Positions 49,434 to 61,344 of a DNA stretch of 64,000 bases are shown in pieces. Position 1 is the stretch's first letter. Each line of letters opens with the position of its first letter. The stretch is from Octopus vulgaris (taxonomy: Eukaryota): assembly GCA_951406725.2 (NCBI GenBank), contig OX597815.1, forward strand, positions 215,326,001 through 215,390,000. The letters are read 5' to 3'. The position numbers and the translations under genes are program-made. The notes under the pieces are model-generated. The model was not told the DNA's origin and searched no databases. It saw only the letters and a list, made by a program, of their open reading frames with translations.

Positions 49434-49633
49434 TCACTTTGCGTCTAATGACAGACATTCCATCGCAGCGACACATTCAGCTTCTTCAAGAGCTGCACGT
49501 AATGTTGCGTGTGTCCGTGTTTCTGGGTCGCAATTCCTGAACCATTCGTAAAGCATCAGGTAGCCTTGTTTTACAGCGTCAATAGACTCATCATCAATTT
49601 TCAGTTTAGTTGTATCAACTCCTAAAACTATCG
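49434..49633 (-). CDS. Terminal coding exon: C-terminal part of a death domain
   Basis: Acceptor GTCTTTTGCAG; phase 1; (A)IVLGVDTTKLKIDDESIDAVKQGYLMLYEWFRNCDPETRTHATLRAALEEAECVAAMECLSLDAK*; ML..W / T...L..AL death-fold pattern. Confidence 0.85.
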
Positions 49634-49989
49634 CTGCAAAAGACACAACAATAAGAAATAAATGCAACAACCTTAACAATATTAGCAATAATATAAAAGA
49701 TGTGTGTTGTTATAAACATAACAAAGAAACTATTTCAAGAGAGAAATATAAAAAAATAGCTAAGAAACAAGAAAATTATAAGACATTGTTTTCTATTTCT
49801 AGGGATGATGAGAAAAATAACAAAGTGGTTAAATTAAAGGTGATTTAAAAAAAAACATTAATTGAAATTTACACTTGAGAATCTTTTAAGGTAAACCGAT
49901 GGCAGATGTGTTTGTGAAGGCAAAAGTGTATGAGAACCTAAAGAATCAACATAGGGTACCAACAGGAAAACCATTTGATCCATTCATTT

Positions 49990-51250
49990 CCTCTGCTCAA
50001 TATTTCTGGGAGAGTTGTGGGGATAGAGTCCCCTGGCATTTCTTCCATGGGGCCTATCAGATGTAACCATCATTACATATTTTGGTTGGATTCCCAAGCA
50101 TCAACAACTAAGTCTATGGATATCATCCAACTATTTAGTGCTTGGTCTACCCCTGGGTCTCCTACTCCATTTGTTTGGCTGGAAGAACCTGTCTTGTAAT
50201 TCATTCCTGCGACATTCTGATCACATGTCCTAGGTACCAGAGATGTGAAGAAGTGGCTCAACCTGGAGAGACTCCCAGATCTCTGAACTATACATCCTAT
50301 TGGGTAACATTACTCCAGAGACCCTTCAGAGAAATCCCATATATCTGTCTTAATCTGGCAGATTTCAGATCTGATATTCAAAGGGTCATGAAAGTAATGT
50401 CTCTCTGTGAAATCAATCACCTTGCAAAGTTCCCAAAATGACACTGAAAATCAAATGAATAATGATAGACCAACAGTCGATTATTCTAAAATCAATCCTT
50501 TTTGTCTACTCCAGATTCAATCAATTCTCCTGAACCCATTCAGTATTCTTATGTCTCAGTGAGAGAGAGACCAGCATGGTCTGGCTTCACTTGTGAATAT
50601 TCATTTTCTGGCAAATTTCCTTAAGTCATTCTCTCTTTTTGGATGTGGGGAATATGATATGATTTGGCTGTGTCACCCCTATACTAAGTCTGTTTTTACT
50701 GAAGCATTTACAAACATATGTCATGTGGTAAAGTCATTTCAATATGGCAATATAAAGAGAGAATACCAAACATCCTATGGATACCGTATTTATTACAGTG
50801 GCTTGTAAACGTATCTAACGAGCGAAAGTTAGATACGTCAATTGTATAATACGTATCCATAGGGAATGATTTGTATTTTATTTATTACACACGAATAAAC
50901 GACCATATTTTATTAACCCAATAACTAAATTCTTCACGTTTAGTTGTCTTATGTCTCAGTGAGAGAGAGAGACCAGCCATGGTCTGGCTTCACTTGTGAA
51001 TATTCATTTTCTGGCAAACTTCCTTAAAGTCATTCTCTCTTTTTGGATGTGGGGAATATGATATGATTTGGCTGTGTCACCCCTATACTAAGTCTGTTTT
51101 TACGGAAGCATATACAAACATATGTCATATGGTAAAGTCAAACAAATATGGCAATATAAATTGCAATTATCACTTTCAAACACAATAACCCAATCCCTAA
51201 TGGCTTCCAGAAGACCCTAACTCATGGTCTTTTGATGGAGTAAAGACGAA
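49990..51250 (-). pseudogene. Highly degenerate RTE-like LINE in an intron
   Basis: Minus strand LWYLGHVIRM and RRPRGRP..K*LDDI, GTLQGD-like motif. Confidence 0.5.
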
Positions 51251-51531
51251 CCAAAAACGTTGACATTAACTCAGCTGTTTACCCTTAACATATTTTTCTT
51301 CTTTCTTCCAATATTAAATGCTACTTGTATTTTCTTGTGTATCCATAATTACCAACCTCAGTGGATACTTTATGAAATACCAGTAATATCATTAATAGAA
51401 TTTATTTTGCAGCTAACCATTCCACTGGAAATTAGGAATGTAACCTGTTCTCTTTCATCCTGACAAATGAAATAGCTCAGGTGAATGTAAAATTTATAGA
51501 AATCAATTAGGTAGTGTAATTTTATACTCAC

Positions 51532-51603
51532 CTACTTGCCACCAATCTCTTCCTAACCTCTTAGCCACTCTCAGAAGATCCTTCTCCTTCAGCTCTGGAC
51601 TCC
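51532..51603 (-). CDS. 72-nt exon: N-terminal helices of the death domain
   Basis: TTTATTTCAG | ... | GTGAGT, phase 1-1; SPELKEKDLLRVAKRLGRDWWQV joins in frame to the terminal exon (L..VA..LG..W..+A..LG). Confidence 0.85.
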
Positions 51604-52199
51604 CTGAAATAAATATTTCCAAATTTTATAATTTATACTAAATTTCTTAATCTTTATTCTTGAGGCATGCTTATCATCAATGGTCAACTGGTGACCACTA
51701 TGATTTTGGTCAACCTTTTTAATCTATGTAATAGCTCAATATTTTGGTCCACAACAAAATAGATTCAACTTCTTAAACTTCGTCTCTCTATCAAGACAAC
51801 CTACATAATCTAACAATGTTGTATTTATCACATTTAATTATCATTTGATAAGACTATTTTTCTCACAGTTCTCTATTTCTCTTCTTATATCTGTACCAAA
51901 CCTGTGACATGACTTCACTCACCAACATTTTTCTCATCTTTTGCTTAATTCTAATGTCAAACAAGGTGTTTTCCAAAGACCTAACCACAAATACACGGCA
52001 GACAAATTCATGTAGGATAAACATACACCTGACATCTTTGTTAAGGGTTGATGTTGGTAATCTTGAATCGTAACTCCGCACGTCTCAGTTCACAAGAACA
52101 TCATCTGATTCAGGAAATATTTTAAGACTCCTTAATAAAGAAGTTCTTTAAAATCCTTTATTCCCCAAAAGTTTTGGCTTATCTATTGCTTATAAGATG

Positions 52200-59012: not shown

Positions 59013-59960
59013 TATCTATCTATTTATCTATCTCTCTCTCTCTCTCTCTATATATATATATATATATATATATATATATATATATATATATATATATATA
59101 TATATATATATATATATATATATATATATATATGTATATATATATACCTGCTCTCTTTGTTATTGGTTACTACTAGTAATCTTTAATCTTAATTACCCAC
59201 ATCACAGTTCTCCAGAATGTAATCAGATGTGGGGAAATATCTGAAGATATTTCAATGTCATTCATCCTCCTGAATAAAGCAGGTCGAAAAGAAAGTGACA
59301 TCAGGTCTAACAGGAAGTGATATCTCGTGTCCTAAATTAACACACTACATTCACACAGAACCTCATTAACGACATAAAACTTGTCAACCAAACATTATTG
59401 CTGTGAAAATATTTGAAACGGTTCAGAAGAACTGATACTCAGGAATACTAATCTATACATCAATCAAAGTTTCCCACCCTTTTGATGTCCCCTCTCTAAA
59501 GTTGTTCCCTAAACCCTCAGTTGAGATTTTCTTATTGAGTCTCCTATTTTATAAAGGCTCACTCTGATATTCATATAAATGCAGTTGTTTTTAATTATCA
59601 GCTTCCGAAGATATTGATAAATCATTAATCACTCTAATCACACACAAGATGTCGGTGTTTACTGATAGAACCTTGGTGATTTATTGGCATTTAGTCACCA
59701 TTTATAATTCAGTATTCTTTATTATTTTTATGTTGCAGAAAGTAACCATCTTGAAGTGTGACAAGTCTTCCAATTGGACAAGAACAATGTTTAGTGGGAG
59801 TAGTGAGAGATATAATATGACAGAGAAAAGACACCTGGAACATCTTTTATCAAAAGTGTGCTTGATTAACGCAAAACTGGATCTACACAACAACATGAGA
59901 TACAATATTCCACACCATAAAGCCTATGAGACAAACAGACAGATCATACAGTATTCTTAC

Positions 59961-60103
59961 CCAAACTATTTTTGCTCGTTATATTCTGTCTACACATAGG
60001 GCATCGTTTAGGTATCTTTGGGAGACAGCATTTCTTACACAGCGAAAGATGTTTACATGGAAAGAACGTCTCTGTGGCCACTTCGTCTTCACAAAACACA
60101 CAT
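59961..60103 (-). CDS. 143-nt exon encoding a C3HC4 (RING-HC) finger
   Basis: TTTTTGTTCCTCAG | ... | GTAAGA; CVFC..FFPCKH..CKKC..CPMCR, the spacing of IAP/Mind bomb-type RINGs; phase-1 donor is in frame with the downstream exons. Confidence 0.88.
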
Positions 60104-60532
60104 CTGAGGAACAAAAACATGAACACATCCCATTAATAACATTCATTTATAACAAATATTACATTGTGTGCATATTTACAGTAGAGAATATTATGCGACA
60201 CCACAATTAAACAATTACATATGGGCGAATTTGTGTGTATATAAATGCATACACAGACACACACACAAACACACGCACAAACACACACACACACATAGAC
60301 ACACACACACACATACACACACACACACACACACACACACACACACACACACACATATATATATATAAATGGACACAAATATTAATAAATATATGTCATA
60401 ACATTGATACATCACAAAAAGTGATTTACGCAAAGTGAACAACATATATTCCAGAAATATAATTCACTTATATACATACACATACACATACATACATACA
60501 TACATACATACATACATACATACATACATACA

Positions 60533-60777
60533 TATGTTTAGATGGGCTGGACACATCGCCCAGCTCACCGAAAATCTGTGGACACGCGCAGATGTCGAGT
60601 GGTACCCGCGTGAGCGGAAACGACCACCCGGAAGGCCTCCACGTCGGTGGAGTAACGATTTCAGGAGGACAATTGGGATCACGCGGATGAGGAAGGCGCG
60701 ATCCAGAGAGGAGTGGACAGTGTGCTGTGACCAGCGGTGTCAAACGGATGCCTGACGGACTAGTCGGTCAAGGTGAT
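60533..60777 (+). mobile_element. 5'-truncated RTE LINE tail
   Basis: RWAGHIA..W.PRERKRPPGRP.RRW..ARSREEW. Confidence 0.8.
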
Positions 60778-61296
60778 ATATATGTATGTATGAATATATG
60801 TATGAACGTATGTATATATATGTATATATATGTATATATATGTATATATATATATATATATATGTATGTGTGTGTGTGTATATATAGACATACATACATA
60901 CATACATACGTACGTACGTACATACATACATGCATACATACATGCATACATATAACACTTGATTGTATCTAATCTGTTTAACAAGTCGTCTATACTTAGA
61001 CATTTGACTTTGAATTTTATGGATGGACAGATAGGACACAATTCCTACAGCTTCATGTATGGCTGATCCATGCCACAAAACAGGTCATTGTTCTAAATTA
61101 GAGTAATGACTTTAGATTTATATACGATATGTGTGTACATAACCAGGGAATTATTTTCAAAAGTGATGAGTTGAATGCAGTAAATGTCATGTTTCCATCT
61201 GCCATCACTGCACCACAAACTTCAGATTGATCTCAGGTCATTACAAGGTACAGTGTTATTCAATGACTGAAAGACTGTGAGAAATAGTTCAACTAC

Positions 61297-61344
61297 CTGA
61301 TTGGTCCCTTCAGTGCCTGGTCCATGCGTCTTCCTCCACCATGG
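61297..61344 (-). CDS. Possible 48-nt exon upstream of the RING exon
   Basis: Acceptor TTTATTCCACAG, weak donor AG|GTAGTT; phase 2-2, HGGGRRMDQALKGPI(R) reads in frame into the RING exon. Confidence 0.4.

Follow-up and report, generated by a model that had tools for sequence, protein, structure and literature searches.

An Octopus gene for an ankyrin-RING-death domain protein belongs to an expanded family related to Mind bomb 2 with a variable ankyrin surface

We analysed 64,000 nt of the Octopus vulgaris genome (GenBank assembly GCA_951406725.2, contig OX597815.1, here C2, positions 215326001-215390000; hereafter "the window"), the minus strand of which carries, at 49434-61344, the 3' end of a gene encoding ankyrin repeats, a RING, a linker, and a C-terminal death domain (DD). 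The gene is an intact member of a family expanded in Octopus which, judging from alignment and intron positions, derives from Mind bomb 2 (MIB2), and whose copies show shuffled modules and excess variation at the surface codons of an ankyrin exon. On balance, though by little, we favor a role of the protein as variable intracellular sensor whose output would be based on ubiquitin and the DD. In this model, a target would be recognized by the diversified face of the ankyrins, the linker motifs are predicted to dimerise the protein through the dynein light chain LC8 (DYNLL), and RING and DD would pass the signal on via ubiquitin and death-domain assembly, possibly in an immune context and with octopus RIPK1-like adaptors as partners of the DD.

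The original prediction, made from the sequence of the window, had combined five exons with canonical splice sites and matching phases into a RING followed by a C-terminal DD. All five are found at these coordinates with AG/GT borders, and as they form a single open frame running from CVFC to LSLDAK and a stop codon at 49434, both the exon set and the position of the RING ahead of the DD are borne out. A sixth in-frame exon of 48 nt (61344-61297) extends this frame upstream and explains the upper bound of 61344. Extension of the model beyond 64 kb, which had also been proposed, yielded seven more exons: mapping relatives onto 120 kb of upstream DNA resulted in an intact open reading frame (ORF) of 13 exons and 514 aa, in which every border is AG/GT and of which the five exons form the 3' end. 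Thus, the 5' exons do lie outside the window, as had been stated, but the accompanying view that orthology could not be assigned was too cautious, as the origin can be traced to MIB2 (see below).

The protein comprises eight TPLH-type ankyrin motifs (aa 1-319, identified by eye), the RING (aa 337-373), the linker, and the DD (from about aa 429), the ORF starting 26 residues ahead of the first ankyrin exon. With the numbering continued past the end of the window, the upstream exons, which contain the start codon and the ankyrin repeats, are located on the minus strand at 90996-90919, 85135-84978, 83387-83246, 73694-73540, 72568-72532, 68341-68129, and 64277-64102; they are based on canonical borders, frame, and homology, while read evidence covers the junctions from 61297 downward. 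Intron 7 (61345-64000 within the window) leads toward them. Exon 8 (61297-61344, phase 2-2) encodes the pre-RING linker (aa 320-335); it is missing from most paralog proteins and its intron is absent from MIB2. Exon 9 (59961-60103) encodes the C3HC4 RING with the spacing typical of MIB RING1. It is followed by two phase 1-1 linker micro-exons, exon 10 (57984-58034, 51 nt) with the degenerate LC8-type motif MEVQMV and exon 11 (54635-54706, 72 nt) with DKGVQSD (DKGVQTD or DRCVQTE in paralogs), the latter being skipped or absent in some transcripts. Exon 12 (51532-51603, 72 nt, phase 1-1) encodes the first part of the DD and exon 13 (49434-49633) the remainder and the stop codon; all these exons are on the minus strand.

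Splicing was examined in contigs of four runs from four studies, the RNA status of which is only guessed, not on record, and without a DNA control. Junction 61297>60103 is present in three of the four runs, 59961>58034 in all of them, and 57984>54706 and 54635>51603 in three each, whereas 51532>49633 is found exactly in two runs and as a paralog-type variant in the other two. Skipping of exon 11 (57984>51603) occurs in all four runs. Each pair of exons that the original prediction had suggested to check is thus joined in RNA-type contigs, but near-identical paralogs are a possible source, e.g. for exon 11 there are three paralogous copies with 98-99.5% identity. Because such paralogs exist and no single contig in the four runs reaches from the RING to the DD, the junctions hold for the family and are only likely for this particular copy. 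In one run, a loose end at 61344 lacks any exact counterpart within the 120 kb upstream and resembles the end of an ankyrin exon of paralog P0004; it was therefore discarded for this gene and regarded as evidence for the paralog only.

We searched the genome (2.8 Gb; contigs labelled C1, C2, C8, C13, C26, and C29-C31 in the following) for the origin of the gene. Full-length Mind bomb genes exist separately from the family on C13 and C26 (the RINGs of the C13 gene lie beyond the 70 kb examined), so that orthology to MIB1 or MIB2 was rejected. The two-RING gene at C26:2.51-2.54 Mb is MIB2 by the definition of Cao et al. (bioRxiv 10.1101/2024.03.01.582834) as given in the accessible text. Our gene is 33% identical to this octopus MIB2 over 399 columns (E 7e-60), and six of nine introns are at the same place and in the same phase, exon 7 being 176 nt long in both genes. 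Introns 3 and 4 agree with MIB2 in phase but, being displaced by four codons, are not among the six; a further intron is absent from MIB2. In a tree based on the last ankyrins and the RING the family groups with octopus MIB2 at 82/94, which is below the starred mark. The two genes diverge at the phase-1 intron following RING1, where MIB2 continues into the coiled coil and the last RING and our gene into the linker and death exons. No SH3_15 match is located on C2 among 18 matches in the genome, and MZM/REP was not detected in Pfam scans of relatives. The family thus derives from MIB2, having kept the ankyrin-RING1 part (ANK-RING1) and lost MZM/REP and the last RING. In human MIB1, MZM/REP and the last RING are reported to be necessary and sufficient for Notch function, ANK-RING1 being dispensable and inactive (bioRxiv 10.1101/2024.03.01.582834, available text). 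Proteins P0142 and P0144, which contain ankyrins and two RINGs only, look like intermediates between MIB2 and the family. MIB2 itself appears to be expanded: a Mind bomb-like cluster at C26:0.73-2.54 Mb contains 16 SH3_15 matches at several sites and at least two genes with ankyrins and two RINGs.

The C-terminal DD escapes detection by Pfam in this subfamily, but not in others. The last exon alone gives no Pfam Death match and close relatives score 13.5-20.8 bits (cut-off 22.6), whereas more distant paralogs reach 29.5-49.4 bits; the low scores may explain why database labels miss the domain. For the AlphaFold model of close paralog P0002 (163 aa, mean pLDDT 81) the 12 best structural matches among 48,161 chains are all death domains, e.g. 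FADD with Z 11.7 and a root mean square deviation of 2.1 for 85 aligned residues. In VIA-align the death-domain rows have Z values of 7.7-11.7, the best CARD reaching 8.0, and the best Foldseek match is the RIPK1 DD, a weak one (E 0.008; none at E 0.001 or better). With the full-length model Foldseek returned ankyrin matches only, and the ESM Atlas gave no usable match, which is uninformative either way. Modeling of P0002 thus confirms, for this close paralog, a fold of the DD type rather than CARD, DED, or PYD, and together with the Pfam scores of the distant paralogs it corroborates the C-terminal DD of the original prediction.

The DD is 34-37% identical to those of cephalopod RIPK1-like adaptors and shares the intron position and phase of the death exon with a RIPK1-like adaptor gene on C26. 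A tandem cluster of such adaptors is located at C26:12.80-12.93 Mb, and P0101 as well as P0095 from Argonauta, both RIPK1-like adaptors, contain a stretch that, by eye, is presumably RHIM-like, with no Pfam match. Identity is 43% to the C-terminal DD of an adhesion G protein-coupled receptor with leucine-rich repeats from O. bimaculoides (P0073). At C1:216.93-216.97 Mb and C1:102.71-102.73 Mb, copies resembling the death exon are arranged in tandem, and almost all of them contain stop codons. Human MIB2 is reported to ubiquitylate RIPK1 through its MZM region (PMC5912950, accessible part), and a captured DD could give the family a different route into RIPK1-type complexes.

The family is large. 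Scoring of 150 out of 156 genomic candidates for the last exon yielded 132 matches. Contigs C29-C31 contain 85 of these, and some of the 132 stem from other death-domain genes or bear stop codons. The RING exon has 48 matches, 42 of which are accompanied by a death exon on the same strand within 25 kb downstream, as opposed to one upstream and one on the opposite strand, i.e. there are at least 42 RING-plus-death loci in this genome. Modules have been shuffled among these 42 pairs: seven are close to our gene in both exons, nine in the RING only, four in the death exon only, and 22 in neither, and in 13 pairs the type of the RING does not agree with that of the death exon. Seven of the ten close copies outside C29-C31 and the small scaffolds, our gene among them, lie less than 370 kb from a contig end, and some copies of the family are broken. 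Ankyrin frames that are related to exon 4, free of introns, and long (up to 1,079 aa) were observed at C8:118.815-118.818 Mb, on C29, and on C31, some beside RING matches.

All matches in three protein searches are from Octopus (38/38, 30/30, and 32/32), and the named relatives, which carry names such as "MIB2-like" or, in some cases, "death domain-containing", come from O. vulgaris, O. sinensis, and O. bimaculoides, i.e. the family has been kept in three Octopus species. Among 30 proteins looked up from the best 150 in a search of 1.8 billion proteins, 25 are from Octopus, four are death-domain proteins of other animals with neither ankyrin nor RING, and one is MIB-like. All named relatives with the full architecture are from Octopus. 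A restriction of the family to this genus is thus likely but not proven, the searches being word-limited or clustered and decapods and Argonauta thinly represented. The lineage-restricted, Mind bomb-like expansion suggested in the original prediction is supported.

The interpretation as variable sensor depends on the ankyrin face, the RING, and the linker, and for each of them some observations weigh against it; they are given here together with the evidence in its favor. The original prediction is to be corrected in that the main variable part of the protein is the N-terminal ankyrin array, which is outside the window. Variation was tested for the 30 best of 150 scored paralog matches of exon 4, which is only one ankyrin exon. 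These loci were picked by protein likeness to this exon, a choice that biases the comparison of exon and introns against the result. Over the first 75 nt of exon 4 the copies differ pairwise by 16.5%, over the following 75 by 8.8%. The corresponding values for the introns are 2.2-8.6% upstream (seven bins, to -525) and 3.0-6.0% downstream (seven bins, to +674), and this local contrast is the stronger of the results on variation. At surface positions chosen beforehand on the basis of DARPin design, the proportion of nonsynonymous differences (pN) is 0.267 vs 0.084 in the framework (permutation p 0.00075), which is almost invariant, and the nonsynonymous rate (dN) of the surface codons is 2.1 times the exon-wide synonymous rate (dS; 95% bootstrap interval 1.05-4.2). 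None of the 30 translated copies contains a stop codon; one has a changed donor. Variation is thus in excess at the ankyrin surface codons, the same geometry as in fungal NLRs, where the concave face and the hairpin of the ankyrins are described to be under diversifying selection (PMC4986451, accessible text). On the other side, dS is also raised at the pre-chosen codons (0.371 vs a dN of 0.33). Moreover, model M2a is significant not only for the ankyrin exon (likelihood ratio test (LRT) 83.7) but also for the death exon (LRT 23.3; 22 distinct sequences, five gapped and three distant copies dropped). As the death exon passes too and both exons recombine, the test is non-discriminating, and codon site models were rejected as proof of selection, M2a moreover not having been fully optimised. 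Variation in the death exon roughly equals that of its downstream flank (4.1%) and stays below that of the upstream intron (11.4%), without an excess like that of the ankyrin exon. In its paralogs L001-L010 and L054-L065, codon positions 1 and 2 differ by 5.3% and position 3 by 3.2%, with a few toggling residues, which may reflect partner specificity or conversion.

The RING passes the Pfam zf-C3HC4_3 search named in the original prediction (38.8 bits, cut-off 27) and has all eight zinc ligands (C337, C340, C352, H354, C358, C361, C370, C373) in RING-HC spacing. Residues F339, P371, M372, and R374 correspond to V965, P993, I994, and R996, by which MIB1 RING3 contacts the ubiquitin-conjugating enzyme (E2), the equivalent of M989 being ambiguous due to a two-residue insertion; this copy thus contains the hydrophobic E2-contact residues and the linchpin Arg of active RING E3 ligases. 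The E2-contact Pro is found in none of the eight non-terminal RINGs of four MIB proteins, octopus MIB2 RING1 reading CIQCK. Nevertheless, the RING descends from the RING1 position, and RING1 of human MIB1 is reported to be inactive in assays (bioRxiv 10.1101/2024.03.01.582834, available text). Additionally, the pattern P-[MVI]-C-R occurs in just 10 of 31 family RINGs parsed (35 tried), some of which lack the His ligand, so that active RINGs probably coexist with inactive ones in the family. We rate E3 activity of the RING encoded by our gene as marginally more probable than inactivity. Of the "lineage-specific E3 ligase" in the original prediction, the lineage restriction thus stands, but the ligase is not safe, the RING being of RING1 type despite its E2-contact pattern. 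The recruitment to death-fold complexes that had also been proposed is still an inference. An IAP origin of the RING was rejected: its best PDB sequence matches are IAP RINGs, but intron positions and an 8-residue spacer tie it to MIB2 RING1.

Alternatively, the proteins might be non-catalytic adaptors or decoys in which the RING is a dormant relic of MIB2 RING1 and which act as ankyrin-to-death bridges or dominant-negative blockers of death-domain complexes. RING1-type spacing and exon position, the 21 of 31 RINGs without P-[MVI]-C-R, and the reported inactivity and mostly monomeric state of the ANK-RING1-2 part of human MIB1 (bioRxiv 10.1101/2024.03.01.582834, available text) are consistent with this possibility. 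We consider it a minority option, as our copy combines eight zinc ligands with an E2-contact pattern foreign to non-terminal MIB RINGs and the family profile finds its best solved-structure matches in active IAP RINGs. In octopus MIB2 the terminal RING, too, lacks the Pro (CHMCR), suggesting that the pattern is not strictly required.

Including the intron flanks, exons 10, 11, and 12 represent tandem duplicates of each other (about 480-550 nt at 64-70% identity), and as all are phase 1-1, they can, from their sequence, be added or skipped freely. The linker is of low confidence in the models (pLDDT <50) and probably disordered. In 35 of 39 proteins that could be parsed, the linkers (1,771 residues) contain 29 instances of a D-K-G-V-Q-T-D-like pattern and the remaining 8,927 residues none (mean of shuffles 0.2), although the pattern was picked once the data had been inspected and the copies are related to each other. 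D[KR][GC]VQ[TS][DE] is kept in 13 of 15 distinct genomic exon sequences, the residues following it being variable, and SDKGVQTP is listed as an LC8 binder validated by isothermal titration calorimetry (PMC6607443, accessible part). When octopus LC8 was modelled in complex with the linker of paralog P0047, the score was 0.63, that of the best control 0.09; the mark applied is reached by 51 of 78 solved and two of 108 mismatched pairs, at least 64% of the contacts coincide between runs, and the pLDDT of the partner is at least 47. To the contrary, the model docked residues 377-388 of P0047 instead of its DKGVQTD motif and may pass via likeness to solved LC8-peptide structures, peptides being outside the calibration. 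The pattern is present in only 18 of the 35 proteins, our copy has Ser instead of Thr, and in the same study only 7 of 19 predicted LC8 motifs were actually bound, many peptides with the anchor failing to do so (PMC6607443, accessible part). Based on motif and model, the chances for and against LC8 binding by the linker appear evenly balanced. As MIB1 is reported to be more active as coiled-coil dimer (bioRxiv 10.1101/2024.03.01.582834, available text), LC8 could stand in for the lost coiled coil as dimeriser.

In a more far-reaching version of the sensor model, to which we give limited credence, the genes would form a germline repertoire of dozens of natural, DARPin-like intracellular receptors built from that half of MIB2 which MIB1 can dispense with. 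RING1 would have been reactivated in some members, spliceable LC8-docking micro-exons would set dimerisation in place of the lost coiled coil, and a DD acquired from RIPK1-like adaptors would couple recognition of pathogen proteins to ubiquitin and cell death, the whole being similar to NLRs and TRIMs but of independent origin. A diversified family without immune function, i.e. one recognizing many endogenous substrates in a neural, developmental, or transposon-related context, is less probable still. The role of MIB2 as ligase for Notch ligands (bioRxiv 10.1101/2024.03.01.582834, available text) would fit such a family, whereas the presence of near-identical introns on both sides of a far more variable exon suggests that diversification was recent and repeated, the DD is related to that of RIPK1-like adaptors, and human MIB2 already acts on RIPK1, albeit via the MZM region lost here (PMC5912950, accessible part). 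Least probable, and already weakened, is a passive, segmental expansion in subtelomeric regions accompanied by gene conversion, in which mostly neutral copies would owe their variation to older paralogs and not to selection: it accommodates the contig-end location of the dispersed close copies, the recombination signal in ankyrin and death exons, and the broken copies, but not the variation at surface codons within an almost invariant framework, the stop-free copies of exon 4, or the retention of the family in three Octopus species.

Several known systems resemble the family in part. MIB1 and MIB2 share the homologous ankyrin array and RING1, introns, and RING spacing with it, but here MZM/REP, coiled coil, and terminal RING are missing, linker micro-exons and a DD have been added, and there are dozens of copies. 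Molluscan IAPs with BIR, DD, and RING (BIRC11; PMC8917759, accessible text) also combine the same Pfam RING family and a DD in one protein and underwent lineage expansion; in our family there is no BIR, the RING precedes the DD, and the ancestry is MIB2. Pfam scans of relatives detected no BIR domain and the upstream exons encode ankyrins; IAPs are described in the same source as least expanded in Octopus. Fungal NLRs with ankyrin sensors (PMC4986451, accessible text) likewise exhibit a diversified concave ankyrin face, recombination, and modular shuffling, but are of unrelated origin, and the output here is RING plus DD without NACHT or NB-ARC; neither was found by Pfam in the ankyrin-RING-death relatives scanned, and the 514-aa model leaves no room for them. 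LC8 clients with TQT/VQT motifs (PMC6607443, accessible part) have motifs of the D-K-G-V-Q-T type in a low-confidence linker, too, whereas here one predicted motif is present per symmetric micro-exon and the number is set by duplication and skipping. A RING family from Sepia is reported to be absent from the non-decapod species compared (PMC13218726, accessible text). By the domain tests the family is neither Mind bomb nor IAP nor NLR, but an expanded ubiquitin-ligase or adaptor family with variable recognition domain. TRIM5 and finTRIMs, the plant ankyrin-RING ligases XB3/XBAT, and the F-box expansions of nematodes also link a variable recognition domain to a ubiquitin-ligase module and are expanded and fast-evolving; they contain other domains or no DD, so that the likeness is one of logic only. 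Literature searches aimed at the family returned no description of it, most subscription papers and supplements being outside their scope.

Which diversified intracellular receptors serve cephalopod immunity is, to our knowledge, poorly defined. The present family, which is large and clustered, has a variable binding face, and contains a DD missed by Pfam in this subfamily, is a concrete candidate that has been concealed by names such as "MIB2-like". It is also a clean case of reuse of a dispensable part of a conserved ligase, and may provide natural examples of how an inactive RING regains E2 contacts and how splicing tunes dimerisation by LC8.

The window contains several other elements. Within intron 7, at 62100-63421, lies an element bounded by terminal inverted repeats of 121 nt (95%); its transposase-like frames are decayed, and by eye it resembles Tc1/mariner. 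Elements of the LINE (long interspersed nuclear element) type with zinc-knuckle, endonuclease, and reverse transcriptase (RT) frames are located on the minus strand at 35593-41026, with an open RT frame of 894 aa, and at 41723-44420, and additional, degraded retroelements without long terminal repeats but with RT matches at 10453-14959, 24866-28073, and 30013-33628. Finally, a unit of about 530 nt is repeated in direct and inverted orientation with 99-100% identity at 3844-6277, reflecting either a very recent rearrangement or an assembly artefact.

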